Shown: positions 3,459-43,125 of the stretch, piece after piece | Numbering within the stretch: position 1 is the stretch's first letter | Layout of the letters: every line of letters begins with the position of its first letter | Assembly (NCBI GenBank): GCA_038063055.1 | Contig: JBBTVY010000005.1 | Span: 2,444 to 66,443 of the forward strand | Length of the DNA stretch: 64,000 nucleotides | DNA from: Patescibacteria group bacterium | GTDB taxonomy: Bacteria > Patescibacteriota > Minisyncoccia > UBA6257 > 2-01-FULL-56-20 | Direction of reading: 5' to 3' | Program-made: the position numbers and the translations under genes | The notes under the pieces: model-generated | Told to the model about the DNA's origin: nothing | The model's database searches: none | The model's input: the letters and a program-made list of their open reading frames with translations, nothing else

Positions 3459-5579
3459 TCATTTTTCCGCGGATTCGGCTGTCTCCCAAATTTCTTTGTT
3501 CACATATTGACTTACAGTTTCAAGGTCATTGAGTAATTTCTCCTCGCGCATCTTTTCCTCCACGGAAAGTTCATTTTTGAGTTTGGCGCGGCGCATTAGG
3601 TCAAGTTCCAATTCTATATCCTTTCGCAGAACGGCGAAACCCCTCTTTATCGAATCCTCGGCGTCCTTGATTGCTTGTTTTAGGCGCTGGTTTTTGAGAC
3701 GGACATGGTAACCATGATAAAGCACGAATGCCAACAACCCCACGAAAGCAAGCGCGAAGATAATGAGTAAAAACAGGTAGAAATCCTCATAACTTAAGCG
3801 GGCGCCGCCTATCTGGATAGCTGTTTTGGCAACCAGGAGGTCGAATTTAGGGCTTGGGGGACTCACATCATTGGCAACTTTAAGCTGTGTCCAAGCAATG
3901 TAGCGGCTGGCTTCCAAAAATCGCGGGAAAGAGTAGAACCAAGCGCCGTTTTCATCGGTAACCGCCACCCGATTTTCCGTGGCTCCGGTGTCAATGTTTT
4001 GCAGATAGATTAAAACCTGGGCTTGGGGCACTCCGGCATTGCCGCCGATATAGAGAATTTCATCATTGGAAATTGACTTTGGGAAAAGAGTTACCACCGG
4101 AGGGTCCAGACGAACGTTGCTTAGAGAATCCTCGGCGGCTTGGGCGTGAAGGGTAAGAATACCGAAATTCACGACAAACATCAGATAAATAAGCATTAAA
4201 CCCTTATCCACGCCCCCTTCGCCGAAGCCAGGGCGAGGAGGCGAGCCGTAATCTTTTTGTTTTTCTTTGAGTTCGGCCAGCTTCCCGGAGATATTGGGAT
4301 GTTTCAAAATGTCCTTGACAAGGTATTTATCGATTTGCAGATGTCGTTTCCAGATCCATATCATTAAATAAACCATTAATCCTAAAAGAGCCAGGGCTAA
4401 AATCAAAACGTATGGCCACCCGAAGGTAACCCCGCCGACACTCAATCCCCCCGAATAGATAACTCCCAAGAAAGGCGCGGTTATTGTAAGTTTGCTCTCT
4501 GCTTGAAAGTAGTTGCCCGCCTGGTCGTAGGCGCGGACGACAATGTCGTATTTGCCTTGGTCTAAAACCCTTGAATATGGCGAATAAGCTTCGATAAAGA
4601 ACGGCGTGGTATTTTGGGCAACCAGGGCTTCCGGCAAATCCAAAGATATAATCTTCAGTTCATAGTGGTTTATCCCGGACACAACATCGGTTGTGACAAA
4701 ATCTATAATCGGGCGGTTGTTGGAAGTAATATGGCCTGGTGAAAAATTAAGTTTGAAAGCGGCAGGCGGCGTGTTATCAACTCGAATCACGTAATCGGTA
4801 ATGCCGCCCCAAGCGCCTTGCCGCAGACTTTTAATGTGGAAATAATAAACGCCGTCGGCAAGATTATTATAAACAACGCGATTTCGCGCTTCCTCCGATA
4901 TGTCATCGGGTTCGCCCCCTGGTTCCTGGTCCAGGACATAGCTGTATCCCTGTATATCGGGCGGCGCCGTCCATTCCAGCGTCACAGTTTTTGTGTTGTA
5001 CCACTTCTCCTGGTCAATGTTAGTGCGGGAAGTGACAGTCGGCCCCTGCGGCGGCGGCAGGGTGAGATAGTAAATCCCGTTCGTAGTTTGGCCCAACGTG
5101 TCAGTTCCGCGGCCGTCATTCAGAAGCACTTTCGAATCATCCAAGATTTTCAAAACGGCAGTACCGGTGCTTTTTACGCGAAAAGTAACGGTGGAAAGCA
5201 AACCGGCGTCGGTGTTGATGCCGGGAGTCGGAATAGTTCCCTGGAACTTAAGCGTGCCGTCGGTATTGGAATAGCTTGGTTGAACGACCCAAATCTGGAT
5301 TAAAGATTTTCCCGTTGTCGGTGAAACCACCTGAAGTTTATCCGCCGGAAAACTTAGGTCCGCCTCAATCGCGTTTATTGCCTGACCGCCGGTATTGACA
5401 TAGATTGAGACCGTAAAAGTGCCGCCTAAGGTAAAAGTTCCCGATGGCGGGGCCACGTAAAGAGAGGCGGCCGCCTCGGCGGAAACTCCGGAGAAAAACA
5501 TAAAAAACGCGGCAAGCAAAATAGCGGTCTTTGCCGCTATCTCGTGGATTTTCGCCAAGTAATTCATGCGTTCAAACAA
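3459..5579 (-). CDS. Membrane-anchored surface protein with N-terminal cohesin-like domain, Ig/FN3-like region, two TM helices and a cytoplasmic coiled-coil tail
   Basis: Signal/TM at N-terminus. Cohesin-like pattern 'LYVAPPSGTFTLGGTFTVSIYVNTGGQAINAIEADLSFPADKLQVVSP...GTDGTLKFQGTIP'. Hydrophobic helices 'YVLILALALLGLMVYLMIWIW' and 'LFLLIIFALAFVGLLAFVLY'. K/E-rich C-terminus. Confidence 0.6.
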   Translation of the reverse strand: MFERMNYLAKIHEIAAKTAILLAAFFMFFSGVSAEAAASLYVAPPSGTFTLGGTFTVSIYVNTGGQAINAIEADLSFPADKLQVVSPTTGKSLIQIWVVQPSYSNTDGTLKFQGTIPTPGINTDAGLLSTVTFRVKSTGTAVLKILDDSKVLLNDGRGTDTLGQTTNGIYYLTLPPPQGPTVTSRTNIDQEKWYNTKTVTLEWTAPPDIQGYSYVLDQEPGGEPDDISEEARNRVVYNNLADGVYYFHIKSLRQGAWGGITDYVIRVDNTPPAAFKLNFSPGHITSNNRPIIDFVTTDVVSGINHYELKIISLDLPEALVAQNTTPFFIEAYSPYSRVLDQGKYDIVVRAYDQAGNYFQAESKLTITAPFLGVIYSGGLSVGGVTFGWPYVLILALALLGLMVYLMIWIWKRHLQIDKYLVKDILKHPNISGKLAELKEKQKDYGSPPRPGFGEGGVDKGLMLIYLMFVVNFGILTLHAQAAEDSLSNVRLDPPVVTLFPKSISNDEILYIGGNAGVPQAQVLIYLQNIDTGATENRVAVTDENGAWFYSFPRFLEASRYIAWTQLKVANDVSPPSPKFDLLVAKTAIQIGGARLSYEDFYLFLLIIFALAFVGLLAFVLYHGYHVRLKNQRLKQAIKDAEDSIKRGFAVLRKDIELELDLMRRAKLKNELSVEEKMREEKLLNDLETVSQYVNKEIWETAESAEK

Positions 5580-6507
5580 GGCGTTTCTTTAAAAATATTA
5601 GTACTATCAACGACAATATTATTATAATCCAAATCAAATTCTGTTTATACCAAGGCTGTGGATACCGGGGCGGCAAAACCGATATTCTTGAATTTCCCGA
5701 TTTATCCACTGCTTTAACAGTTATATCTTTATCAAGCGATTGGTATTTCAAAAGATAGGGGCTTTCGGCGACAATAAAATGGTCGGCTCCTTCTTTTACC
5801 TCATAATGGTCTATGCCGCTTCCTTTGTCTTGGGCGTTGAACGCCAAAAACCATTTCCCATCAAGAACAGATTGGTCGTTGCTTACAATCGGGGAAAACG
5901 GGTCGGGCGGAATCGTATCGGCAGGCAAGAGAAGATTGTCTGCTACGGGTGCCTCGGATATCATAAAACTAAGTGCGGAAACTTTAGTTTTTGCGGCAGT
6001 TCCGAGTCCGTCGTTTAGAAACGCTTTCACGTCTTTCATCGAAATCAGTCCGTCCGTGACCCTATCCCCTTTTACAACGAAAGAAAATAGAAATCCTTTT
6101 ATGCCATTATATCCTCCAGGTATTATGCCGGAAAAGAAAATTTCTCCGTCGCCGGAAAGATGCGGCTTTTCCACCCACAAATTGACTATGGAATTGCCGT
6201 CGTGTATTTCCTTTAAATCGAGAATGTCGTGCGGGAACACAACTTTTCCCTGAACCGCATTTATTCTCTCATAATCGGAATTGAGGAAAACGGATACTTC
6301 GAAAAGCTGTCCCACTGCTGCGGTATTGGCCAGCGATGAAAATTCAAAAGTGGCGGCCCGGGCTGTTGATAATGTGCCAGCCGCGATAGACAAAGCAAGC
6401 AAAAAAGCAACAGCAATACGCAATGTCTGTGAATTTGAAATTTTGAATCTGGAATTTGGCATAAATGATTTATAATTAGAATTCTCTAGTTTTTTTAATA
6501 AAAGCAT
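5572..6507 (-). CDS. Cohesin-like domain protein with C-terminal TM anchor, paralogue of the adjacent gene
   Basis: Signal peptide. 'ATFEFSSLANTAAVGQLFEVSVFLNSDYERINAVQGKVVFPHDILDL' parallels the N-terminus of 3459..5579. C-terminal 'LIWIIIILSLIVLIFL'. 8-nt overlap with the downstream gene. Confidence 0.55.
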   Translation of the reverse strand: MLLLKKLENSNYKSFMPNSRFKISNSQTLRIAVAFLLALSIAAGTLSTARAATFEFSSLANTAAVGQLFEVSVFLNSDYERINAVQGKVVFPHDILDLKEIHDGNSIVNLWVEKPHLSGDGEIFFSGIIPGGYNGIKGFLFSFVVKGDRVTDGLISMKDVKAFLNDGLGTAAKTKVSALSFMISEAPVADNLLLPADTIPPDPFSPIVSNDQSVLDGKWFLAFNAQDKGSGIDHYEVKEGADHFIVAESPYLLKYQSLDKDITVKAVDKSGNSRISVLPPRYPQPWYKQNLIWIIIILSLIVLIFLKKRLV

Positions 6508-6853
6508 TTAGCAACTTATGAACGACAATTGACTGCTTCGAGAGATTGTCAAAATCTTCAGAATTAATATATTTAATGTCCCGCGCTATCAAAATTTGAT
6601 TTTGTAATTCTGTCAACGAGCCATGAGATATTGAATAGAATTGGATTTTCTCTTTCGCAGAATGTCTGGAAAACCCTTCGGCAATATTGGAAGTTATAGA
6701 AACCGCTGCGCGCCTAAGCTGTGAAATCAACCCAAAAGTTTCTTCTCTTGGAAAAGATTTAGTTAAACCATAAATCATTAAAACTAGTTTATGGGATTCT
6801 CTCCATACCTCTAAATCGGTAAATGATTTTATTTTGCTAATGCTATATTCCAT
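6476..6853 (-). CDS. Four-helix-bundle protein (23S rRNA intervening-sequence protein / Avd-like family)
   Basis: 125 aa. Motif 'EVWRESHKLVLMIYGLTKSFPREETFGLISQLRRAAVSITSNIAEGFSRHS' typical of TIGR02436/PF05635. Confidence 0.7.
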   Translation of the reverse strand: MEYSISKIKSFTDLEVWRESHKLVLMIYGLTKSFPREETFGLISQLRRAAVSITSNIAEGFSRHSAKEKIQFYSISHGSLTELQNQILIARDIKYINSEDFDNLSKQSIVVHKLLNAFIKKTREF

Positions 6854-9914: not shown

Positions 9915-10274
9915 TTAGCGTTTATTTTTTAGTTTTTTAATTAAAACAAACAACATTTTTTGAATCTCTGTAAGTAAATTTCCGGCTTTTAAAACATCAA
10001 CTTCGGGGTAAATGCTTTTGATGAGAATAATTTGTGTTTCTAATTCTGCGGCCGAAGCATCTGCAACACTCAAAAATTGTAAATATTCTCCTAACCCATG
10101 CCTTTTATAGCCTTCCGCAATATTTGATGGTACAGAAACAGCCGATCGTCTTATTTGACTAACCAATCCATAAATTTCACTTTTGGGAAGTTTATTGCTT
10201 AAATCGTAAACCTCTTTTACTAATAAAATAGATTTCTTCCAAACTTCTAATTCTTTATAAGATTTTAAATACAT
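9915..10274 (-). CDS. Four-helix-bundle protein (23S rRNA IVS protein / Avd-like), second copy
   Basis: 'ELEVWKKSILLVKEVYDLSNKLPKSEIYGLVSQIRRSAVSVPSNIAEGYKRHG' matches the PF05635/TIGR02436 pattern. Confidence 0.7.
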   Translation of the reverse strand: MYLKSYKELEVWKKSILLVKEVYDLSNKLPKSEIYGLVSQIRRSAVSVPSNIAEGYKRHGLGEYLQFLSVADASAAELETQIILIKSIYPEVDVLKAGNLLTEIQKMLFVLIKKLKNKR

Positions 10275-10324: not shown

Positions 10325-13114
10325 CTAGTTACTAACACAGCTAAACGTAATCGTGTCCGCATAGACCCCGCCGGTTGCGCTTGCTCCTACTGTGGCTTTG
10401 TGGGTAACCACTACTTCCCTGTTGGTTACGGCGGCAGTTGAAGAAGCGAGAATCACCGTAGTCGTGGCAAGGCCTCCCACCGTGTTGCCGCTTTGGAGAT
10501 AGCGGATATTCAGAGTAAGCGTTCCTCCGCTCCCGGCTGTTGTCGTGGCTCCCTGAATTCCGTAACCGTCGGTATTCGCGGCAAGGGTCGCGGTGGCGTT
10601 AAAAGCGGCATCCGGCGATTTGATTAAGTAGTTGATTGTCGTGGACGCGTACAATCCCCCGCCGGTGGTACTGCTGCCGTTATCGTTGACATAAAGAACA
10701 CAGCCAAGCGCTCCGTCGCAAGACATGGAAGTCGATGCGTTGGGAGAAGAAGTGAAGATGCCAGTCGTGTCTATCGTGCCGAAATCCGTGCTCGAAGCGC
10801 TGGCGGAACAGGAAACGGTTGCAGTCGGAGTGAAAGATGCGACTGCGTAAACGGAATAAGTCGTTAAACCCGTTCCGGCGTCGCTTACTCTGAAATAATA
10901 AGTCGCCGAAGAGGCGTTGGAAGTGGACATAATTGAATATTCAACTTCGGTAAATCGGATTCCGCTCAGAAGTTCGGAGTTCGCCTGATTTCTGCTTGTG
11001 GTCGCCACAACTTCGGCGGCGTTGAAAATTATGTTTTCGTCGGTCGTTCCTCCGGTGGAAGTGGCGATGTTCGTGGTTGCCGTGCCATCGGCAACCAAAC
11101 TCGACGTGGACATTTGCCACTCTCTCGTGCCTGCGGTCGAAGTCGCCAGTTGCGTCCACGTTCCGGAAGTAGAGTTGGCCTGATATTCTATTCTGAATTG
11201 GGCCGAACTGGTGGCATCGCCCTCGTTTGAAATTTCAAAACGCAGGCGCTTGACGGTTCCGATTCCTTGTATCGACAACGAAGTGTCTTCGCTGGCCGCC
11301 GCCGTCGAGGTCGCTTCACTGCCGTCGTCGTTGCGCCAATGGTAGTGGATTTGGGTCATGTTGGCGGCAAGGATGCTGGTTTGGCCGTATATGTTATAGC
11401 TGGCGTCGTTAATGCAGCTGCTTGTGCACCGGACTGAATTGACAACACTAGCCGAGAAGCCGGCCGACGAAGTGGCTGAAAAGGACTCGCCATAAGTATT
11501 TTCTAAGGTATTCGGGAAGCTGTAACTCGTGGTCGCGTTGTTTATACCCAATTCGAGAAATTGGGCCGCGACACCGTTGCCGGAGCTGCTGTCGTCGTAT
11601 TCGCCGTCAAGCCAGGCCCATTTGGCCGTGGTTGATGAGTCGGCGAGGGTTGTATTTATGCTTGTCGTTGCAAAACTGGTTCCGACCGACATATTCGATT
11701 GCGCCAAAAAAGAAAGATAATTGTTAAGGTTGGCGTTCGCCACCGGAGAGTTCGTATGGTCATAGCTCCAAAAAAGTTTCATGCCGCGTATGCTTGTGGC
11801 GCCAGAAGTGCTGAACGCCGAACAAACTATTTTGTCGCCGCCCGTTGTGGTCGCCAAATTGGCGGCAACGTTCCAAACAGGAGTTGCGTAACCGGTGGTG
11901 TCGTTGGCGGGCGGCGTTTCGGTTATGGCGGTTGTCGTCAGGTTTGTGCAGGGCGTGCCAGGGCCGAGAGTCGCGTTCATACCCGGATTCGCGGTTGCGG
12001 TGAAATTTGTCCTGCCTAAAAGAAACGCGTTAGTTGATGAAGGAGAGGTTTCTGGAATATTTATCGTGGTAGTCGCCAGCAGCGTAGCCGTACTCGCGGT
12101 GTTGGTATTTTGCATTAGCCAAACCTGGATGTTTTTGCGGAGTTTCGAACTTGCGTTGAAATTGAAAGTGTATGTGGCGACTGCGACTGCGTTGGGGTTG
12201 CTTAAAGAATTACTACTTATACTTTGCATTTTAAAAGTGTGATTGCCGGAAGGAGAAGCATCAGCGGTTGTCGGACTATTCAACATTAAAACGCTGTAAG
12301 AATCCCCTAATTGCGCGAAAGTAGCGGCGCTTGTCGCCTCCGAATCCCATCCTACGCCGACCGTTATCGCCGTCGTAGTCGAAATCCTCGCCCTGAATTC
12401 GGCCCAAAATTGGTTCGAGGAACTCGCGCCAACGGAAAAAGTCGTTGTGGCGCCGCTTTCCGGCAAACCGAAATTGAAATTCGCCGAAGTTACCAGCGCC
12501 TTGCCCATCTGCGAGCTGGTGGCGAACACGAATCTATAGTCGGTGTTTACCTGCGTGGGGGCAAACGGGTCATAGTCATAAGTAATAATAAGTTTTGCGC
12601 TTTCCGCGGACCGCGTGGGACCGGTAATTTTCGTGGTAAATATCATCGCGTAAGTTCCGCTGGCGTTGCCGATTAACGTTTGCATGGCGCTTGTCGCGTC
12701 AAGCCGAAAAGCAATCCATCTGTTCTCGGCGCTGTCGGTCAAAGTGCTCGGACAAGTCAAACTCTGGGCGATTCCGCCCTGAACGTTCAAAGTAAATGTA
12801 CAGGCCGAAATGCTTGCGGTGCTTGGGTGCGTATTATAAGAAATATACGCCGAACGGATTGGCTGGGAGGTGGGAACCATATCCGGAAGCGCGATGACAA
12901 ACGCGTAAGTCGACGTTACTCCGTTTGCGATGGGGGTCGTGGAAATAATCGAACCGATAAAAAACTCGATTGTCTTGGTTTTTGCGGCGGCTTCGGCGAC
13001 TTGAACCTGAAGAGTTAGGTCGCGCGATTTGAAACTCGATAAAAAATCAACCGGCGCGGGAATGGCGATAGTGGAAATCAAAAGCGCTACCAGAAATTTT
13101 CTTTTGGTATTCAT
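10325..13114 (-). CDS. Giant (929 aa) secreted T/S/A-rich adhesin-like protein ending in an SCPU/Csu-pilin-like domain
   Basis: Signal peptide 'LVALLISTIAIPAP'. C-terminus 'VSCSASASSTDFGTIDTTG...GGVYADTITFSCVSN' is paralogous to the C-terminus of 9111..9776. Confidence 0.6.
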   Translation of the reverse strand: MNTKRKFLVALLISTIAIPAPVDFLSSFKSRDLTLQVQVAEAAAKTKTIEFFIGSIISTTPIANGVTSTYAFVIALPDMVPTSQPIRSAYISYNTHPSTASISACTFTLNVQGGIAQSLTCPSTLTDSAENRWIAFRLDATSAMQTLIGNASGTYAMIFTTKITGPTRSAESAKLIITYDYDPFAPTQVNTDYRFVFATSSQMGKALVTSANFNFGLPESGATTTFSVGASSSNQFWAEFRARISTTTAITVGVGWDSEATSAATFAQLGDSYSVLMLNSPTTADASPSGNHTFKMQSISSNSLSNPNAVAVATYTFNFNASSKLRKNIQVWLMQNTNTASTATLLATTTINIPETSPSSTNAFLLGRTNFTATANPGMNATLGPGTPCTNLTTTAITETPPANDTTGYATPVWNVAANLATTTGGDKIVCSAFSTSGATSIRGMKLFWSYDHTNSPVANANLNNYLSFLAQSNMSVGTSFATTSINTTLADSSTTAKWAWLDGEYDDSSSGNGVAAQFLELGINNATTSYSFPNTLENTYGESFSATSSAGFSASVVNSVRCTSSCINDASYNIYGQTSILAANMTQIHYHWRNDDGSEATSTAAASEDTSLSIQGIGTVKRLRFEISNEGDATSSAQFRIEYQANSTSGTWTQLATSTAGTREWQMSTSSLVADGTATTNIATSTGGTTDENIIFNAAEVVATTSRNQANSELLSGIRFTEVEYSIMSTSNASSATYYFRVSDAGTGLTTYSVYAVASFTPTATVSCSASASSTDFGTIDTTGIFTSSPNASTSMSCDGALGCVLYVNDNGSSTTGGGLYASTTINYLIKSPDAAFNATATLAANTDGYGIQGATTTAGSGGTLTLNIRYLQSGNTVGGLATTTVILASSTAAVTNREVVVTHKATVGASATGGVYADTITFSCVSN

Positions 13115-16417: not shown

Positions 16418-19213
16418 TTATCGAATTCCTAATAACGGCCCAAAGGCACTTAACACTTGGGCGAAAAATCCCTGATTAACCGGTTCAATCATTGAACCCG
16501 GGCCGAACTGCTGGCATGCCGGATCCTGATAATTTTGCATGCAGTAGGCCTGGCATTCTTCGGGAGTTTTGCAGCCGCCTGGTCCAGTAAAATCAGCGCC
16601 ACCATCTCCCGATGTCGGCGTTTGCGATTGATATGCAGTACAACGAGAGTCACCTATATTGGCCTTACAAAATTCTTCCCATGAAGAGTATCCCTGCGGA
16701 ATCGCCGACTGGTCCCCGCCTTGTTGCTGTTGTACCCCACTATCTCCGCCCTTGGGCTGGCAGGACTGAAATTTAGCTTGAACAGACGGGTCGGGTGTTC
16801 CCTGCTGTTGTTCTCCGTCGCCACCGCCACCGCCTAAAGAATTAAGGCAGGCCTGAAATTCACCGCATGATTTAGTAAGACACGCGTTAACTTTTTCTTT
16901 TTGGCAGGCCTGGACTTTCGCATTAACTTTTGGATCGGGCGTACCTTGCGCTTGTGGCTGGCCGCTCGGCGCTTGATCGCCACCTTGCTGGAGAGACTTC
17001 ATGCAGGCGTCAAATTCCGAGCAAGAAAACGCAAGGCAAATATCTATCTTCTCCCGAAGACAGGATAACGCTCTTGCCTGTACTTTTTTCCCGCTTTCGT
17101 CCTGTGGTCCTTCTTGTCCGGATGATTGCTGATTGCCCTTAGGCAAAGCGTCAAAACACGAGTTGAACTCGGCACAGGTGGCTTTACTTAAACAGACCTC
17201 AATTTCTTTACGGATATCCTGACCCATCAAGCTCTCGCATTTTCTCTGTGCTGTTTCTAAGGCGGGTGACTTTGCTTCTGATTGTGTTATTTTTCCGGCC
17301 TTGAATCGTCCAAAAAAAGAGGGACCCAATTCTTTCTCCATGCAGGCAAGCCACTCTGGAGGAGCTTTATCAAGTGATGTCATAAACTTACGCTGTTCTT
17401 CAATGTTTTTAAGATCTTCTTCGCTGAGCATGCCGTGGTCCTTAGCCCAGTTAAAGCAGGTGTCCTGGTTAATGACACAGAATGCCTCACAGTCGGCTTT
17501 GCTCTTGCAACCGCCGGGGCCCGAGGTGATTTTAAATTTTTTGGCCATTTCCGCTTCTTCTTTTGAGATAAAGCCGGCGCGCACCGCAAAATCCACACAC
17601 TCATCAATGTGCGCTTCACTTTTGCAGTAACTGTCACACGCCTCTCGCGACCTGCAATTCCCCGGACCCTTACCGCCGGTTTTCTTCACGATATCGGCTT
17701 CCTCTCTTGTCATAAAACCAACTTTCACTGCAAAATCAATGCACTCATTAGTGTGAGTGTCGCTCGCGCAATAGGCATCGCATGATTCTTTTGTCGTGCA
17801 TCCGCCGGGCAACTTTCCGCCGCTCTTAAGATACGGGAGTATTTTATTGACCGCCTCGGCGTCTTCTTTTGGTATAAATCCGGCTTTCTGGGCAAATTCC
17901 ATGCACACAACCGCATTAGCCGAGTTTTCACAATACTTCAAACAACTTTCTTTGGTTTTGCAGTTTCCCGGAAACGCCACGCCCGCCTTTTTAACATCGG
18001 TTATCTTGCGTATTTCTTTTAATTCGTCGGCACTGGCCAATTTAAACTTTTCCACAAAATTGACGCATTCCTCCAGGTGGTCAATGTCTTCGCAGTATGT
18101 TCGGCAGGCAACCTCATCTTTGCACTGGCCGGGACTTTCTCCTTTTTCCATTGCCGCAAAAACACCTTTTTTCTCCTCAGGCACTTCTATCGTTAATCCG
18201 ACTTTTTTGGCAAATGTGACACATTTTGAGTAATTGCTTGATACACTGCAGTAGGTTTTGCAATCTTCTTGGCTACCACAACTCCCCAACTCTACTACCG
18301 GGTATGCAATGGCCACTGGTTCAGGTATTAACATTCCCCGTGGTTCAGATGTCTGTGGTTCAGACCCTAGATACGACTGACACCTGCTATCGTTGCCCAC
18401 ATTGAATGTGGACACAATTTCTGATTGACTCAACGTCCTGTTGTATACGGAAACCCCACCGATCACGCCGAAGAAAGGTTCGGCAGCGCCACCCCGGTCC
18501 CATGCCCCGAGCGTGAATGGCGCCTCGCTTGTGGTGTTGGCGCCCGGAGCTTCGGCGGTTCCTTTCAGCTTGCCATCTACATATAATTTCATGGTACCGG
18601 AGCCGTCTCTCGTAGCAACGACATGGTACCAAGTATCCGTGTTAATAGTCGTAGTGATTTTACCTCGGGATTCGCCAGAGATACCGGCGGATTCTCCTGC
18701 AAAAAACTCCAACATTCGATCATCCCCGCCCGCTTTCAGCCAATATCCATACCCGGGACCTCTCACTGGATAATTTGACTTTCTGATGATGTTACCTGCG
18801 GGTATTCCACTGCCGCGGAGCCCCAAACGAAACCAAACTTCCAATGAAAACGGGCCTGTTCCAAAATTTAAACTCTTGGAATTTTCCATCCTGATATATC
18901 CGCTGGATCCATCAGGATGAAAATTATTCCCATTTTCCCAAGAACGAATAGTGACTCCGCCATGGATCGTTCCATTATTTCTCGCCTTCATATCCGCGAC
19001 GGTTTTCATCTCCGAGGCGGTTTTCCCCGTAACCGTATCTCCATTCCACCGACTAACCAAACCAGAAGGGGGTTCTGGGCAAATCTTTCCAGATAGTGAG
19101 GTCTGTCCAATTCCTTCTCCTTCGTTTTGAGCAAAAACGATATAAGTGCTGACTAAAAACAACAAGACTATTATTGATGGGAATATAAAAGTTTTCTTCG
19201 GAGAGATTGGCAT
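16418..19213 (-). CDS. Large secreted protein: N-terminal signal, LamG/concanavalin-like domain, about 8 tandem Cys-containing ~45-aa repeats, C-terminal Cys-rich Q/G-rich region
   Basis: 'MPISPKKTFIFPSIIVLLFLVSTYIVFA' signal (internal start preferred over the listed 19429 start). 'WYHVVATRDGSGTMKLYVDGKL' LamG hallmark. Repeats of 'C..YC......C..FA.K.G....E'. Confidence 0.6.
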   Translation of the reverse strand: MPISPKKTFIFPSIIVLLFLVSTYIVFAQNEGEGIGQTSLSGKICPEPPSGLVSRWNGDTVTGKTASEMKTVADMKARNNGTIHGGVTIRSWENGNNFHPDGSSGYIRMENSKSLNFGTGPFSLEVWFRLGLRGSGIPAGNIIRKSNYPVRGPGYGYWLKAGGDDRMLEFFAGESAGISGESRGKITTTINTDTWYHVVATRDGSGTMKLYVDGKLKGTAEAPGANTTSEAPFTLGAWDRGGAAEPFFGVIGGVSVYNRTLSQSEIVSTFNVGNDSRCQSYLGSEPQTSEPRGMLIPEPVAIAYPVVELGSCGSQEDCKTYCSVSSNYSKCVTFAKKVGLTIEVPEEKKGVFAAMEKGESPGQCKDEVACRTYCEDIDHLEECVNFVEKFKLASADELKEIRKITDVKKAGVAFPGNCKTKESCLKYCENSANAVVCMEFAQKAGFIPKEDAEAVNKILPYLKSGGKLPGGCTTKESCDAYCASDTHTNECIDFAVKVGFMTREEADIVKKTGGKGPGNCRSREACDSYCKSEAHIDECVDFAVRAGFISKEEAEMAKKFKITSGPGGCKSKADCEAFCVINQDTCFNWAKDHGMLSEEDLKNIEEQRKFMTSLDKAPPEWLACMEKELGPSFFGRFKAGKITQSEAKSPALETAQRKCESLMGQDIRKEIEVCLSKATCAEFNSCFDALPKGNQQSSGQEGPQDESGKKVQARALSCLREKIDICLAFSCSEFDACMKSLQQGGDQAPSGQPQAQGTPDPKVNAKVQACQKEKVNACLTKSCGEFQACLNSLGGGGGDGEQQQGTPDPSVQAKFQSCQPKGGDSGVQQQQGGDQSAIPQGYSSWEEFCKANIGDSRCTAYQSQTPTSGDGGADFTGPGGCKTPEECQAYCMQNYQDPACQQFGPGSMIEPVNQGFFAQVLSAFGPLLGIR

Positions 19214-19214
19214 A

Positions 19215-19454
19215 TTATTCAAAAGGGTTTTTATAAATTGTATCAAAGGGATTTTTTTGTTCTTTGAAGGGATTAGTATCCGGCACCTGACCCTGAAGTT
19301 GGTTTTGTGTCTTGTCAAAAATTTCGCTCCCCAGCGAAGGAACTCCTTCCGAAGACGGGGCTTGCTTACTCTTTGACCAATACCAAAAACCGACCCCGCC
19401 GACCGCGAGAACCAATACAGCGACAACAATAGAGATGAGTTTCTTATTACCCAC
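19215..19454 (-). CDS. Small single-TM membrane protein
   Basis: 'LISIVVAVLVLAVGGVGFWYW' TM; abuts the start of the large protein. Confidence 0.4.
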   Translation of the reverse strand: MGNKKLISIVVAVLVLAVGGVGFWYWSKSKQAPSSEGVPSLGSEIFDKTQNQLQGQVPDTNPFKEQKNPFDTIYKNPFE

Positions 19455-23433: not shown

Positions 23434-26400
23434 TTATCCGGGAACTTGAGACCTAAGAATTTCGGACAATTGCTGCAACAGGCCGAGAAGCTTGACTTGT
23501 AGCGCCAAAACTTGGGCGTTGAGAGCTTCTCGGCTGGCCGAGGTCGTGCTGGCTCCGGCAACCTGACTGCCGTTCAGTCGCGCTCGGGTAAGCGGGCCGA
23601 CAAATCCAGTAGCGGAAATGCCGTATTTTTGCTGATAGGCCTTTACTCCTTTTTCGGTCAGCGGGCCGAAGTATCCCGTAACTCCTCCGGAATAAATTCC
23701 CTCTTCCGCGAGCCGTTTTTGAAGCTCCTCGACATCTGAACCGCGCGAGCCGACTTTAAGGTTTTGAGTGAACTGGAAGACAGAAACTCCGAGTACTTGT
23801 CCGGATGGCAAGGCGGAAGCAGGAACTGGAGTTGGGGCTTCTTGCGTCTGGATAAAACCACCGCCTCCGCCTCCTCCAGTGCCGCCACCGCCGCTATTGG
23901 CCGGAGGACCGCCTACCACCGGTCCTTGAGTGTATGTAGTGAAACTGGTGAAGTGCTTGGTCCAAATTACCAGGTCGGAACCAACGTCAATCTTGCAGTC
24001 CCCCGCCGTTCCAAGCTGGGCATCAACCGCCGCTTGGTTGTCCGCATCGCAAACGGTGGTTATGTTCGTGAACGCGCCACCGCGGGAATAACCCGCATAT
24101 TTGCCCGCCTGTCCCGCTATAAGAATTCTCACGGCTTTGCTAAAGAGCAATTCGGTGTCCCCATAACCAATTTCTATAACCGAGGATACATCAGCGGTGT
24201 TGCCGGGCAGAGGTACGGGGTTTACGCTTGAATTTGCTTTGACCTGCGGAAGGTTCACGATGCCTGTCCATTCGGAACCGCTCGGCGCAGTGATAGTCGT
24301 ACCGGACGAAATGGCTACACTGACATTCCCCACAGTTGTATCGGAATTCACGGTAATGGCAACTGGAAGAGTTGCCGAATCGCCGCTTTGAAGCGCGGCA
24401 ACATTGAGAGTTGCGTCATTAACATCTTCCGGCACCGTGATTGTTGAGTCGCCGACAACAGAACCGTCCACAACGGCTTCCGTAAAAGTTACATCGAGAG
24501 TCGTGCTGGGAGCAAGAATTACTTGGTCTTCTAAGAGAACATTAACAGTCACCGTATGCGTTCCCACCACCAAATTGTCAGCGGTATCCACCAGTTCGTA
24601 TGTAATGGTGTAGGAGCCGGCCGGTGCGTTGGAGTTGAATTTGATTTTGTCTGCGTTGGTGAAGACGTCGTTTGTAACCAATGAAAATCCGATATCGGTA
24701 GTGCAAGTATTGGGATCATCATGACCGCTCGGGAGTACCGCATCGCAGGAGCCGGTAGCGACTAAATCATTGCCAACTGCCGCAAGCGGATAATGATATG
24801 CGTCGGTTAAGGAATCAGTTTGATCTTTCCAACCGACTTCATCCAAGTCCACCATGTCGGCGGTAAGAGCCGATGGCCCGTTAACCGTCACTTTCCATTT
24901 GATGGTTTCGGGGTCTCCAGTTCCAATCGCAGGGCCGGTATAAGTTGTGGCGCGGCCGATGTATGCGTCACTGCCACGGGCAAGAGTTGAACCGATTTGA
25001 GGAGAAAAATCCACGTTGACATCAGCTGGGTCAGCGAGAGTGATGACAGAGGTAATAACCTCAACCGTTACCACATGCGTTCCCACCACCGAATTGTCAG
25101 CGGTATCCACCAGTTCGTATGTAATGGTGTAGGAGCCGGCCGGTGCGTTGGAGTTGAATTTGATTTTGTCTGCGTTGGTGAAGACGTCGTTCGCATCAAG
25201 CGAGAAGCCAACCAGAGTGGCGCAACCATTGTCGTGCAAGTCGGCGACATCGCAAGAGCCAGTTACGATAAGATTGACGCCCACTTGTGTAAATGGATAA
25301 TGGAATGTGCTCGCGACTATTCCGGCGCCGTCAGGGTCATTGAACCCGACTTCGTCTAAATCCACCATGTTCGGTGTAAGAACCCCAGGCCCGCTAACCG
25401 TCACTTTCCATTTGATGGAGTCAGTGTCTGCTCCGAGAACAGGGCCTGTGTAGGTCGTGGCGCGGCCGATGTATGCGTCACTGCCACGGGCAAGAGTGGT
25501 GTCGATTTGAGGAATGAAAATTTCACTGACTACAGTCGGATTCGCAATGGTGATGATGGCGGGATAAACAACTTCAATCGTTGCAGCGGTAAGTTCGTTG
25601 GAAACTGGACCGCTACCATTTGCATATACTAATTGGCGTTTAATTGTGTAAGTGCCGAGAGGCGCTAAGTTCGTAAATCTTATTCTATCTACATTGGTAA
25701 AATTATCATTAAGGTCAACCCCAAAGGAATCTACTGCTCCTCCTCCATGATCAGGTGTAGATTCAGAACCTTGCGCTACTAAAGTGCCGCTTCCCGTAAA
25801 TGGGTAATGGAAAGTTTCAATATTAGTGGTAACTAAATCTTTCCAACCAATCTCGTCTAAATCCACCATGCTGGAGACGAATCCCGCTGGACCTTCTATT
25901 GTAATTTTCCATTGAACACCTGGAATGATTTCAGCAAAACTTGAAACTGAATTAATGCTATAATAAGCATTTATGTTTTGAGCTAAGGGACTTTCAAGCG
26001 CCGGTTCAAATGTTGTAGCGTTAATTGTAAGATCATCAGGACTCGGTCGTGTTAGGGTAACTTCTCCCGTAACGTTCACATTTACGACGTAGGCATTACT
26101 TAATACAAAATCTGGGTCTGGAGATGTATTTACAAGTTCGTAGGTAATAATGTAATTACCCAGCGAAGCATTGGAATTGAATTTAATTTTGTCGGCGTTG
26201 GTGAAGACATCGTTTTCATCAAGCGAGAAGCCAATATCGGTCGCGCAATCGGTATGGTCGGTCATATCAACCGTATCGTCGCAGGAGCCGGTGGCAACAA
26301 GACTGCCATCCTCTTGTTCCATAAATGGATAATGGAATACATCGGTTGGGGCGGAGGAATCGGTTTGGTCAGTCCAACCAACCTCGTCCAAATCCACCAT

Positions 26401-27105
26401 GTCAGAGGTGAGAGCGGAAGGCCCGTTAACCGTCACTTTCCATTTGATGGAATCGGTCTCTGCTCCAAGAACAGGACCTATGTAGTTCGTGGTGCGGCCG
26501 AGATACGCTTCACTGCCCCGGGCAAGAGTGGTGTCGATTTGAGGAATGAAATCTTCATTGACATCAGCTGGATCGGCGGAAGCGATGGAGGCAACATACC
26601 CCTTTGTAGGTGTAGAAGTTATAGACCAAGAAGTGCCGTCGAAGACCGCGGACTGAACTACAGATGGCGCGGAAACGTCTACCCCGGGATCACTGCCGTA
26701 GCTAACGCTGTGAATGGGAGTGTCAGTGTCATCAAATATAGTAATCGTTTCCGTATCGGGAGTATTATTCAGCCAGCCGGAGGCGTGCTCAAAAACGACA
26801 ATGCCATTCGCTGGGATAGTGCCGAGGTCGGAAAGTAATTGAGGATTAGCTAAATCCTGAATAGTCCATCCAGTCAAATCAACCGGACTTGCGGTTGTAT
26901 TCAATAACTCCACCCATTCCGGGTCAGAAGCCGATGAAAATTCATTGATAACGACATCGCCATCGCCGGGGCTTACGGCAAAAACAGGCGTGTAAAAAAA
27001 GCCGCTCATTGCCACCAATGCCACGGCTGTAAAAATTAAAGCCGACTTTTTAATCTTGCTACCCCCCACTAATACGACACGAAACGCAGATTCAATCTGG
27101 TTCAT
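23434..27105 (-). CDS. Giant (1223 aa) cell-surface protein: signal peptide, lamin-tail domain, four ~175-aa tandem repeats, Gly-rich linker, PG_binding_1 domain, C-terminal coiled coil
   Basis: 'VVINEFSSASDPEWVELLNTTASPVDLTGWTIQD' is LTD-like. Repeats begin 'DFIPQIDTTLARGS.AY.GR'. 'GYFGPLTEKGVKAYQQKYGISATGFVGPLTRARL' is a peptidoglycan-binding domain. Confidence 0.7.
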   Translation of the reverse strand: MNQIESAFRVVLVGGSKIKKSALIFTAVALVAMSGFFYTPVFAVSPGDGDVVINEFSSASDPEWVELLNTTASPVDLTGWTIQDLANPQLLSDLGTIPANGIVVFEHASGWLNNTPDTETITIFDDTDTPIHSVSYGSDPGVDVSAPSVVQSAVFDGTSWSITSTPTKGYVASIASADPADVNEDFIPQIDTTLARGSEAYLGRTTNYIGPVLGAETDSIKWKVTVNGPSALTSDMVDLDEVGWTDQTDSSAPTDVFHYPFMEQEDGSLVATGSCDDTVDMTDHTDCATDIGFSLDENDVFTNADKIKFNSNASLGNYIITYELVNTSPDPDFVLSNAYVVNVNVTGEVTLTRPSPDDLTINATTFEPALESPLAQNINAYYSINSVSSFAEIIPGVQWKITIEGPAGFVSSMVDLDEIGWKDLVTTNIETFHYPFTGSGTLVAQGSESTPDHGGGAVDSFGVDLNDNFTNVDRIRFTNLAPLGTYTIKRQLVYANGSGPVSNELTAATIEVVYPAIITIANPTVVSEIFIPQIDTTLARGSDAYIGRATTYTGPVLGADTDSIKWKVTVSGPGVLTPNMVDLDEVGFNDPDGAGIVASTFHYPFTQVGVNLIVTGSCDVADLHDNGCATLVGFSLDANDVFTNADKIKFNSNAPAGSYTITYELVDTADNSVVGTHVVTVEVITSVITLADPADVNVDFSPQIGSTLARGSDAYIGRATTYTGPAIGTGDPETIKWKVTVNGPSALTADMVDLDEVGWKDQTDSLTDAYHYPLAAVGNDLVATGSCDAVLPSGHDDPNTCTTDIGFSLVTNDVFTNADKIKFNSNAPAGSYTITYELVDTADNLVVGTHTVTVNVLLEDQVILAPSTTLDVTFTEAVVDGSVVGDSTITVPEDVNDATLNVAALQSGDSATLPVAITVNSDTTVGNVSVAISSGTTITAPSGSEWTGIVNLPQVKANSSVNPVPLPGNTADVSSVIEIGYGDTELLFSKAVRILIAGQAGKYAGYSRGGAFTNITTVCDADNQAAVDAQLGTAGDCKIDVGSDLVIWTKHFTSFTTYTQGPVVGGPPANSGGGGTGGGGGGGFIQTQEAPTPVPASALPSGQVLGVSVFQFTQNLKVGSRGSDVEELQKRLAEEGIYSGGVTGYFGPLTEKGVKAYQQKYGISATGFVGPLTRARLNGSQVAGASTTSASREALNAQVLALQVKLLGLLQQLSEILRSQVPG
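24400..26560. repeat. Four tandem ~530-bp coding repeats inside the giant surface-protein gene
   Basis: Near-identical stretches, e.g. 'gtgaagacgtcgtt...ggtgtaggagccggccggtgcgttggagttgaatttgattttgtctgcgttggtgaagacgtcgtt', recur around 24600 and 25130 and more diverged around 26170. Confidence 0.7.
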
Positions 27106-35405: not shown

Positions 35406-36460
35406 TTACAATTTTTCCACTTCTGCCTCGATAAAAACGTCTAAATTGCCGTTTAGCACTTCGTCCACCTGCGTCGTTTCGGCCTCCGTCCTGTGGTCTT
35501 TTACGAGCTTATACGGATTCATCACATAAGAGCGTATCTGGCTGCCCCATTCGGGTTTGACGTTGACGCGGAGGTTGGCCAGTTCTTCAACCTTGTGCTT
35601 TTCCATAAGTTGCGAGAGTTTGGATTTCAATAAGCTCAAGGCGCGCTGGCGGTTTTGTTCCTGCGAGCGTTCCGCGCGCGAACCAGCCGACAATCCCGTC
35701 GGAATATGGACTATTCTGACGGCGGTTTCAACTTTGTTGACGTTCTGTCCGCCTGGGCCCCCGGAACGTGAAAATTCCAGCTTCAAATCCTTTTCAGGAA
35801 TTTCTATTTTAGATTCTTCCACCGCGGGAAGTTCAGGCGTCACTTCAACCAGAGCGAAAGAAGTGTGCCGCAATTGTTTTGACGAAAACGGCGAAACTCT
35901 TACCAGCCGGTGGACGCCTGATTCGCCTTTCAAATATCCGAAAGCGTACTCCCCTTTTATTTCGAGCGTCCGCCGATTCGGCGTGTCGTCCAAAACTTCG
36001 GCTTTCCATCCGCGCCTGACCGCGTAGCTCTTGTACATATCAAAAAGCATCAAAGCCCAGTCGCCGGCGTCCTCTCCTCCCGCGCCGGGATAAACCGAGA
36101 CTACCGCCGTTTCTTTGTCGTACTTGCCCTTGAAAAGTTCCACGAGTTCCAGCTGCCTGAATTTTCTTTTGGCTTCGTGAAATTTATTTATGGTAAGCGG
36201 AGTCGAACCACTTTTGTTCAATTCCTTCTCGAGTTCTTCGATTAAATTTTCCACTTCGCGGTGACGCTTTATCAAAGCATCGAGCTCGCCGAAAGTTTTT
36301 ATTTTTTCGTCCGCCGTTTGCCTGTTCAGCCAAAAATCAGGCCGCGACATTCCGGCTTCGATTTCGTTCTTCAGTTTTTCTTTTCCGGCGACGTCAAAGC
36401 CGGCCGCCTAAACGGCGGCATTCGGTTTTAAGCTCCTGTAATTCTTGTTTGATATCCATG
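35406..36460 (-). CDS. prfB: Peptide chain release factor 2 with programmed +1 ribosomal frameshift (CUU UGA C) at about 36393..36399
   Basis: Frame 0 '[21 protein letters not shown]' then UGA. The +1 frame continues '[22 protein letters not shown]...' into the listed ORF. 'SPF' and 'GGQ' motifs present. Confidence 0.85.
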
Positions 36461-36466
36461 GGGAGA

Positions 36467-36712
36467 TTATAGTTCTTTTTTAATTTGATTCCAATCAACT
36501 TCGCTTATCTCTTCTAATTCTTTGAGTACATATTTTAAAGTTTGTTTGGGCAGATAAAAAGGAATAGTTACGGATTTCTGATTTCTCGGCCATATTGCTT
36601 TAAAATGGCTTCCGTTTCCGCCAACTTTATTAATTTCAAAACCTACCCTTTGCAGGGCTTTACAAAAACGATTCTGCTTAATTTCTCCAGGTAATTCACT
36701 AAGCGAGGGCAT
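36467..36712 (-). CDS. hicA: HicA-family mRNA interferase toxin
   Basis: YcfA/HicA-like 'LQRVGFEINKVGGNGSHFKAIWP...VTIPF'. Confidence 0.6.
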   Translation of the reverse strand: MPSLSELPGEIKQNRFCKALQRVGFEINKVGGNGSHFKAIWPRNQKSVTIPFYLPKQTLKYVLKELEEISEVDWNQIKKEL

Positions 36713-37025
36713 AGGCGTTCTGCCGTTCCCCTTCCCTAATTATTGCTGCCTCTTTTTTGTAAGAAGAAGGAACTTCGAATGAAGTCAAAATCGCATCTCT
36801 CACGTTTTTATCGAGTTCTTCCAAATTACGCCCATGGGCAATTATGCTGCCGTATTTAAAATTAGTACTAACAGAAACTATAAGACCATCGTCTTTATGA
36901 TTTTTGAATTCAATCGCGCCATACTGCCTGAAATATTTATTAAGCTCATAAAGCCCGCTGGGAACGACCGCCTTCCCCAACAAAACCTTTATCGCCTTGT
37001 CTTTTGCTACTTTAATTAAGTTCAT
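36699..37025 (-). CDS. hicB: HicB-family antitoxin (RNase H-like N-terminal domain)
   Basis: UPF0150-like 'YGAIEFKNHKDDGLIVSVSTNFKYGSIIAHGRNLEELDKNVRDAI'; 14-nt overlap with hicA. Confidence 0.5.
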   Translation of the reverse strand: MNLIKVAKDKAIKVLLGKAVVPSGLYELNKYFRQYGAIEFKNHKDDGLIVSVSTNFKYGSIIAHGRNLEELDKNVRDAILTSFEVPSSYKKEAAIIREGERQNAYALA

Positions 37026-37994: not shown

Positions 37995-38061
37995 AATAGT
38001 AGCATGGTCAGTTTCATAATATCCTAGAGTGGAAATGGTATCTCGATGAAAATATCGTTTG

Positions 38062-38134
38062 TGGGCCAGGAAGGACTCGAACCTTCGATCCTCAAGGTAT
38101 AAGCTTGATGCTTTAGCCGCTAAGCTACTGGCCC
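38062..38134 (-). tRNA. tRNA-Ile with UAU anticodon (reads AUA)
   Basis: Clean cloverleaf GGGCCAG/CTGGCCC, anticodon stem TCAAG/CTTGA, loop CTTATAC (U33, A37), T-loop TTCGAGT, A73. Confidence 0.7.
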
Positions 38135-38144
38135 AAAACTGAGA

Positions 38145-39980
<1,836 letters not shown>

Positions 39981-40162
39981 TTATTTAAAAAGTTTGGGTT
40001 AAATGAAACAGTAAGATTTTAACTTAATTTATGGACGCCGTCAAAAAAAGCAGTAGTCCGCTCCGGGCGGATCACTTATCGGAAAAAACAATGGCTCTTC
40101 GCGGAAAACTTCCCGCGAAGAGCCGGAACATACTGGCGCCCCAAACAGGTAAAGGGCTTGCC

Positions 40163-42716: not shown

Positions 42717-42804
42717 TGGTGCGTGGGGCAGGATTCGAACCTGCGTAGCCCATTGGGCGTCAGATTTACAGTCTGATGCGATTGGCCGCTCCGCCACCCA
42801 CGCA
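42717..42804 (-). tRNA. tRNA-Tyr (anticodon GUA), long variable arm, CCA encoded
   Basis: GCGTGGG/CCCACGC acceptor, anticodon loop CTGTAAA, 16-nt variable arm, T-loop TTCGAAT. Confidence 0.8.
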
Positions 42805-42813
42805 CCATCTCAA

Positions 42814-43056
42814 TCAACGGTTTATTAATTTTTTAAAGGCTTCTCCGCCTTTGTATGCTTTTATTTCTCTTTCACGCCCAACTGCCCGGGCGCGAGTTCT
42901 AAAATTCTCTGCATACACTACCTTATATGGCGTACGCGACCTTGTAAAGCGGGAATGGCCTGCGTTGTGTCTTTTTAATCTAGATTTTAAATCACTAGTA
43001 GAACCGATATAATGCGAGCCGTCTTTAAGGCTCTTAATGATATAAACAAGGTACAT
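42814..43056 (-). CDS. GIY-YIG nuclease-domain small protein (second copy)
   Basis: 'MYLVYIIKSLKDGSHYIGSTSDLKSRLKRHNAGHS'; the listed N-terminal extension runs over a tRNA-fragment repeat, so the internal start is preferred. Confidence 0.65.
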   Translation of the reverse strand: MYLVYIIKSLKDGSHYIGSTSDLKSRLKRHNAGHSRFTRSRTPYKVVYAENFRTRARAVGREREIKAYKGGEAFKKLINR

Positions 43057-43091
43057 TTCAATAGCCAATTTGGGCGTCCCGCCAGCGGCGG

Positions 43092-43125
43092 GATGCGATT
43101 GGCCGCTCCGCCACCGACGCATTCA
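43092..43125. repeat. Partial direct repeat (~31 bp, 2-3 mismatches) of the tRNA-Tyr 5' half (42775..42806)
   Basis: 'gatgcgattggccgctccgccaccgacgca' versus 'gatgcgattggccgctccgccacccacgca'. Confidence 0.75.

Follow-up and report, generated by a model that had tools for sequence, protein, structure and literature searches.

A tRNA-Ile(UAU) gene conserved downstream of ftsH, and its probable part in lysidine-free reading of AUA in a lineage of Patescibacteria

Introduction

In the canonical system for distinguishing AUA from AUG, TilS converts the CAU anticodon of tRNA-Ile2 to LAU, and the enzyme is often encoded within a tilS-(hpt)-ftsH arrangement.

The tilS gene is present in ~98 % of annotated genomes (PMC12514573), with nine bacterial species described as being without it (PMC3575796) and TAT tRNAs recorded for 19 species in tRNADB-CE (PMC4013482). 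Bacteria lacking tilS are reported to possess either a type-1 isoleucyl-tRNA synthetase (IleRS) with a Trp-to-Arg/Lys change or an IleRS of eukaryote type (PMC3575796). No paper was found in the open-access literature that joins CPR, Patescibacteria or Parcubacteria with lysidine, TilS or the AUA codon. Herein, we describe a tRNA-Ile gene with a UAU anticodon from a 64,000 nt stretch of DNA (the window), which belongs to a 194,945 bp contig from a 0.1-µm-filtered Hainich groundwater metagenome, and compare its locus with those of related bacteria.

Results

Sequence and structure of the tRNA-Ile(UAU) gene

The gene lies on the minus strand, with anticodon residues U34-A35-U36 corresponding to window positions 38101-38099.

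38062-38134, minus strand: tRNA-Ile, anticodon UAU (ARAGORN, Rfam RF00005, sequence and covariation)

ARAGORN predicts three tRNAs in the window, one of them being this minus-strand tRNA-Ile with anticodon tat, which it places at 38061-38134. In agreement, the sequence read from 38134 to 38062 matches Rfam family RF00005 across the full length of the model (1-71 of 71) at 72.0 bits (E = 9e-14), as compared with a gathering score of 29, and without any non-canonical pair being flagged; this is well outside chance expectation. On the minus strand, the 5′ part of the gene reads GGGCCAG UA GCUU AGCGGCUA AAGC A UCAAG CUUAUAC CUUGA and the 3′ part GGAUC GAAGG UUCGAGU CCUUC CUGGCCC A. These 73 nt comprise an acceptor stem of 7 bp (GGGCCAG/CUGGCCC), a D stem of 4 bp, an anticodon stem of 5 bp (UCAAG/CUUGA), a variable loop of 5 nt and a standard T arm. 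The anticodon loop is C32-U33-U34-A35-U36-A37-C38, the discriminator base is A73, and CCA is not encoded within the gene. A preceding sequence-only reading had described a clean cloverleaf with U33, A37, A73 and a UAU anticodon, each of which is borne out by the minus-strand sequence, by ARAGORN and by the Rfam score; its coordinates were also right, with the strand left unstated, and the ARAGORN run that it had proposed returned the same anticodon loop.

Genomic context

Upstream, the tRNA has ftsH as its conserved neighbour, and this gene ends in a TAA stop codon. The features of this region are as follows.

38135-38144, minus strand: spacer of 10 nt (UCUCAGUUUU) from the ftsH stop codon to tRNA position 1 (sequence, ORF coordinates)
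38145-39980, minus strand: ftsH, 611 aa, with FtsH_ext, AAA, AAA_lid_3 and Peptidase_M41 domains (Pfam)
38164-38191, minus strand: sigma-70-like promoter match TTTACA-16-TAAAAT, 10/12, within the 3′ end of ftsH (consensus match only)
40016-40044, minus strand: sigma-70-like promoter match TTGACG-17-TAAAAT, 10/12 (consensus match only)
40093-40124, minus strand: strong terminator-like hairpin with 14 pairs, 9 of them G-C, followed by a T-run (sequence)

At 10 nt, the spacer between ftsH and the tRNA is too short to accommodate a promoter. The promoter match within the 3′ end of ftsH finishes ~30 nt ahead of the tRNA and could possibly serve as a dedicated tRNA promoter, whilst the second match, sitting 36 nt upstream of the ftsH start, is likely to represent the beginning of an ftsH-tRNA transcription unit; seven promoter-like sites were found in the region, with 4.4 being expected by chance. 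The terminator-like hairpin closes the gene upstream of ftsH. The slot where other lineages carry tilS is occupied by this terminator and a 137 aa ORF without a family match.

The wider neighbourhood of the tRNA is one of housekeeping genes, including prfB, ftsE/ftsX, mnmA, secY and genes for a type IV pilus ATPase and platform, together with a nearby ribosomal-protein block, EF-Tu and EF-G.

A number of other elements were noted within the window. The prfB gene (35406-36458, minus strand) displays a classical programmed +1 frameshift, with CTTTGAC at 36399-36393: a short ORF from the ATG at 36458 ends in CTT TGA C, and the 314 aa body lies in the +1 frame, which implies termination at UGA in the source organism. 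Approximately 1 kb downstream of the tRNA, an 81 aa HicA-toxin ORF overlaps a 108 aa ORF without a family match (36467-37025, minus strand), the two likely constituting a HicAB toxin-antitoxin pair. A 102 aa ORF with a GIY-YIG nuclease domain (42814-43122) abuts a tRNA-Tyr(GUA) gene at 42717-42803, both on the minus strand. Two small minus-strand ORFs (6476-6853 and 9915-10274) match the 23S_rRNA_IVP and bAvd four-helix-bundle families and are situated amongst large ORFs without family matches (e.g. 929 aa at 10325-13114); they may be accessory to a diversity-generating retroelement or belong to a related system, with no reverse transcriptase seen. Finally, very large predicted surface proteins are encoded on the minus strand at 3459-5579, 16418-19429 and 23434-27105, with Cohesin, Laminin_G_3, LTD, collagen-binding and peptidoglycan-binding domains, which would fit an attached or episymbiotic lifestyle.

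Conservation amongst relatives

With the window FtsH protein as the query, 80 ftsH loci were collected from GTDB species representatives, each including flanking sequence of up to 10 kb per side. The closest FtsH proteins are 66-61 % identical and derive from Patescibacteria MAGs with titles such as Paceibacterota and Jorgensenbacteria. In 27 of the 80 loci ftsH is followed by a tRNA-Ile(tat) called by ARAGORN, at distances ranging from 11 nt to 5 kb, and in 14 of these 27 the gap is only 11-125 nt; the record titles of the group are Nomura-, Kaiser-, Taylor- and Jorgensenbacteria, Minisyncoccales and Paceibacterota. The FtsH proteins of these 27 species are 51-66 % identical to that of the window. 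The UAU tRNA is therefore the rule, and not the exception, in the source lineage. The sequence-only reading had called a genomic UAU tRNA-Ile rare, which stands with regard to the literature, but does not apply within the lineage from which this DNA derives.

In two neighbour-joining trees of FtsH the UAU loci form one group, the sole extra member being L034, for which the downstream flank extends for just 1.7 kb. This suggests a single origin of the UAU arrangement, which we do not claim as proven because the FtsH bootstrap for the group is weak (16/100 exactly, and 27/100 with L034 included). The nearest neighbours of the group in one of the trees are Moranbacteria-like loci (L008, L013, L014 and L037) that carry tilS-ftsH.

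An alignment of 26 tRNA-Ile(UAU) genes, taken from loci L003 to L080 and the window, shares one cloverleaf and reveals compensatory double changes in 17 of the 21 stem pairs, with the anticodon loop residues C32-U33-U34-A35-U36-A37 (CUUAUA) being invariant. The gene is thus kept under purifying selection. Position 38 is C in 19 of the tRNAs, A in five and U in two; the majority accordingly have a C32/C38 loop, unlike E. coli tRNA-Ile with its A38. A further variation concerns the first acceptor pair, which is C1-G72 in 10 of the 26 molecules (CCGCCC.../...GGGCGG). ARAGORN also reports a tRNA-Ser with an ACU anticodon (A34) beside tRNA-Ser(GCU) in two of the UAU-group loci (L045, 14169-14256; L074, 14871-14960); bacterial Ser anticodons beginning with A have been described as very rare (PMC4013482).

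Beyond these 80 genome loci, a generic tRNA-Ile(UAU) pattern returned at least 80 loci from metagenome contigs, with 79 of the 80 listed being called tRNA-Ile(tat) and 13 of those listed having FtsH nearby. Within 487 kb surrounding the 79 listed genes, a TilS HMM detected no tilS. Many of the genes listed are found in dense arrays of 9-11 tRNAs in <3.2 kb (L105, L120 and L150 have 9-11 tRNAs within 1.4-1.9 kb), and arrays of this kind are probably phage-borne.

Distribution of tilS and tRNA-Ile2(CAU)

A TilS HMM was built from the PP-loop ORFs of the 80 ftsH loci. In 15 other loci it identifies tilS as the gene immediately preceding ftsH, with six of these 15 ORFs also confirmed by Pfam (PF01171, with or without TilS and TilS_C domains). 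None of the 80 loci has both an upstream tilS and a downstream tRNA-Ile(UAU), and the slot upstream of ftsH in the window harbours no tilS. A six-frame search with the same HMM of 514 kb, comprising the 27 UAU loci and the window, found neither tilS nor a remnant of it; since a randomly placed tilS would be expected only ~0.6 times in this sample (27 loci, ~20 kb per relative), the zero count informs solely on the lost linkage between tilS and ftsH. Nor was tilS found in the ~77 kb of the source contig that was read, which includes the 64 kb window and a further 10 kb of the contig and compares with a probable genome size of 0.7-1 Mb. ORFs of TilS size that do lie upstream of ftsH in UAU loci were considered and rejected, as they encode S1-domain, patatin, peptidase M3 or unknown proteins and are not of the PP-loop type. 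The linkage is itself not universal, as many non-UAU CPR loci (Uhr-, Magasanik- and Falkowbacteria) are also without tilS beside ftsH.

In neither the window nor the 27 UAU-group loci does ARAGORN call any tRNA with a CAU anticodon. In contrast, the tRNA(CAU) genes close to ftsH in tilS-bearing CPR loci L043 and L008, and also in L066, match E. coli ileX in both the D arm and the anticodon arm, for which reason they are taken to be tRNA-Ile2; that of L043 lies 142 nt after ftsH. The anticodon arm of the window tRNA differs from the ileX-like GCGACUCAUAAUCGC arm of these three, its anticodon is UAU rather than CAU, and a derivation of its body from tRNA-Ile2(CAU) is not obvious. Nevertheless, because an ileX-like tRNA near ftsH and a downstream tRNA-Val are to be found in this context, the latter being common to both the UAU and the tilS arrangement, the comparison suggests that the UAU tRNA occupies a former tRNA-Ile2 position.

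Beyond the loci themselves, the incomplete annotation tables of Minisyncoccus archaeiphilus and PMX_810_sub, both of which are also without ftsH, list neither K04075 nor a true TilS. The one PMX_810_sub entry named by Prokka as a 'tRNA(Ile)-lysidine synthase' is an N-acetyl-sugar amidotransferase. When the TilS profile was compared with a set of 5.8 billion proteins, the best 120 matches were all Moranbacteria-like, a result that is uninformative on Paceibacteria. A possible loss of tilS, as suggested by the sequence-only reading, would fit its absence from the slot upstream of ftsH and from the ~77 kb of the contig that was read.

Usage and meaning of AUA

Isoleucine is encoded 1431 times in 75 ORFs of the window, 503 times (35 %) by ATA, which amounts to 26 ATA per 1000 codons; in the ribosomal-protein and elongation factor block the share of ATA is 37 %. 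Other NNA codons are disfavoured, the mean share of A-ending codons in six four-codon families being 13 % as opposed to 35 % for ATA. To assign a meaning to the codon, ATA positions in the ftsH genes of the UAU group were scored against columns conserved in the FtsH alignment of the other (non-UAU) lineages. The conserved residue at these positions is Ile in 65 % of cases, Val in 19 %, Leu in 13 % and Met in 1 %, a profile that is indistinguishable from that of ATT/ATC, whereas ATG differs (Met 63 %). Given this placement on Ile/Val/Leu columns and the high usage, AUA is a major Ile codon that has not been reassigned, and it is read as isoleucine in the source lineage.

The use of ATA as a marker for the UAU system was rejected, as low-GC CPR that bear tilS are also ATA-rich, and UAU and tilS loci are not cleanly separated by ATA usage once GC content is considered. 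Three Dehalococcoidia loci (L023, L053 and L076) display a similar ATA skew and have no UAU tRNA near ftsH.

Isoleucyl-tRNA synthetase

No IleRS gene is present in the window or at any of the loci, the matches obtained being LeuRS, ValRS and MetRS. The annotated IleRS of two Paceibacteria (M. archaeiphilus MNSC_03180 and PMX_810_sub_00382) does, however, carry PF19302, a domain found in the type-2 enzyme MupA and not in E. coli IleRS1, and which hence marks a type-2 IleRS. By analogy with these relatives, the tRNA-Ile(UAU) of the source organism is probably charged by a type-2 (eukaryote/archaeal-like) IleRS, and the two PF19302-bearing enzymes match the pattern of Bifidobacterium and Neorickettsia (PMC3575796).

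Discussion

We consider it likely that the window encodes a functional tRNA-Ile(UAU) that reads AUA directly in a bacterium of Paceibacteria/Parcubacteria type, within a lineage that is probably lysidine-free and where the UAU arrangement stands in place of tilS-ftsH(-tRNA-Ile2 CAU). The second part of this proposal follows from the fact that ftsH-tRNA-Ile(UAU) is common to all sampled members of the group, in the place of the tilS arrangement of neighbouring lineages. In mechanistic terms, the tRNA would be released from an ftsH-tRNA transcript, or from one that starts at a promoter inside the 3′ end of ftsH, followed by processing by RNase P and at the 3′ end, with CCA presumably being added afterwards. 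Charging would be by the type-2 IleRS seen in relatives, and AUA would then be read through a U34-A pairing that needs no lysidine. Misreading of AUG might be avoided by an unmodified U34 combined with discrimination by the ribosome, as in Mycoplasma mobile, by some modification of U34, or by tuning of the loop through C32/C38.

The principal alternative is that the UAU tRNA is a redundant decoder, acting as a second reader of AUA in a genome where tilS and tRNA-Ile2(CAU) are located elsewhere. The coexistence of both systems has been proposed for Lactobacillus casei/plantarum, Cyanothece and Ferrimonas (PMC3575796), the search for tilS in the source genome extended to ~77 kb, and those other CPR groups with no tilS beside ftsH are not known to be tilS-less overall. 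Set against this, a single locus retains the tRNA in all 27 members of the group under clear purifying selection, the codon that it serves is a major and not a rare one, the conserved tilS slot is empty, with no remnant in the 514 kb searched, and two related genomes are annotated with IleRS2, the type found in the tilS-less Bifidobacterium and Neorickettsia. On this evidence redundancy appears rather unlikely, although it retains appreciable weight.

Two further explanations carry far less weight. The gene might not be an Ile decoder at all, and instead represent a pseudogene, a tRNA of other identity with a chance UAU, or the reader of an AUA codon that has been reassigned (e.g. to Met, as in mitochondria). 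The isotype call does indeed come from the anticodon alone, and C38 and the A-U pair at 29-41 differ from E. coli tRNA-Ile. However, A73, C4-G69 and U12-A23 of the window tRNA agree with the identity elements of the E. coli molecule, the full-length match at 72 bits, the covariation and the anticodon loop that is invariant amongst homologues also argue against this explanation, and ATA codons match conserved Ile/Val/Leu columns rather than Met. This explanation is thus already largely refuted, and we regard it as very improbable. Similarly, the tRNA could be a mobile or phage-derived gene brought in to boost the reading of AUA, outside of the core translation set, a notion that draws on the many metagenomic tRNA-Ile(UAU) genes held in phage-type multi-tRNA arrays. 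The window gene is, by contrast, a single tRNA located 10 nt after ftsH amid housekeeping genes, its linkage to ftsH is kept across 27 species despite FtsH identities of only 51-66 %, and there is no integrase, tRNA array or break in composition nearby, nor is its presence patchy. A mobile origin is consequently scarcely plausible, and the window tRNA is an ordinary, conserved component of the translation system of this organism.

Direct reading of AUA by the UAU tRNA belongs to a class of mechanism already known from M. mobile, Bifidobacterium and Neorickettsia; what is probably added here is that it is apparently lineage-wide and tied to the ftsH locus. A broader reading, which we favour with slightly less assurance than the proposal for the source lineage, is that an entire species-rich branch of Patescibacteria, covering the record titles listed above (from Nomurabacteria to 'Paceibacterota'), gave up TilS and lysidine, with a UAU tRNA and a type-2 IleRS replacing tRNA-Ile2(CAU) at the old tilS-ftsH-tRNA locus. 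If true, lysidine-free decoding of AUA would be standard in a considerable part of bacterial diversity and not a curiosity of ~10-20 species, and estimates of the universality of lysidine would be skewed towards what holds in cultured organisms. In that case, neither tilS nor tRNA-Ile2(CAU) ought to be expected in these genomes by annotation pipelines or by marker sets for completeness. The branch would also offer natural variants (C, A or U at position 38, and C1-G72 acceptor ends) in which to examine how reading of AUG is avoided by a tRNA with U34, whilst the cultured M. archaeiphilus would make the mechanism of AUA/AUG discrimination testable.

Comparison with known systems

With the canonical TilS system the window locus shares the problem of AUA versus AUG and the ftsH neighbourhood, with tilS upstream and an ileX-like tRNA(CAU) being present in neighbouring lineages; it differs in that the anticodon is UAU and not CAU, and in that neither the locus nor the rest of the 77 kb read contains tilS. 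The tilS-suppressor of Bacillus subtilis, a G34-to-U change in tRNA-Ile1 (PMC3919564, PMC3575796), demonstrates that the function of TilS in a bacterium can be taken over by a UAU tRNA, although it is a laboratory derivative of tRNA-Ile(GAU), whereas the window gene is natural and conserved. The cytosolic tRNA-Ile(UAU) of eukaryotes, read as pseudouridine-A-pseudouridine, is likewise a case of a UAU-type anticodon accepted by IleRS2, which for the window is suggested by its relatives; the eukaryotic genes require an intron for pseudouridylation, whilst that of the window is intronless.

Closer similarity is seen with M. mobile (Taniguchi et al. 2013, PMC3575796), also a small-genome bacterium with a genomic UAU tRNA and AUA as Ile, in which the lysidine system is dispensable or absent, as is proposed for the lineage of the window. 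Differences between the two lie in the synthetase, which in M. mobile is of the bacterial type 1, with Arg in place of a Trp of the zinc-binding domain, and in the relatives of type 2; in U34, which has been shown to be unmodified in M. mobile only; and in distribution, as the M. mobile type is confined to few species and the trait described here appears to span a whole lineage. The best match to the two annotated Paceibacteria with PF19302 is provided by Bifidobacterium and Neorickettsia, which are tilS-less and combine a eukaryote-type IleRS with tRNA-Ile(UAU) (PMC3575796), but which belong to unrelated phyla and for which a linkage to ftsH is unreported.
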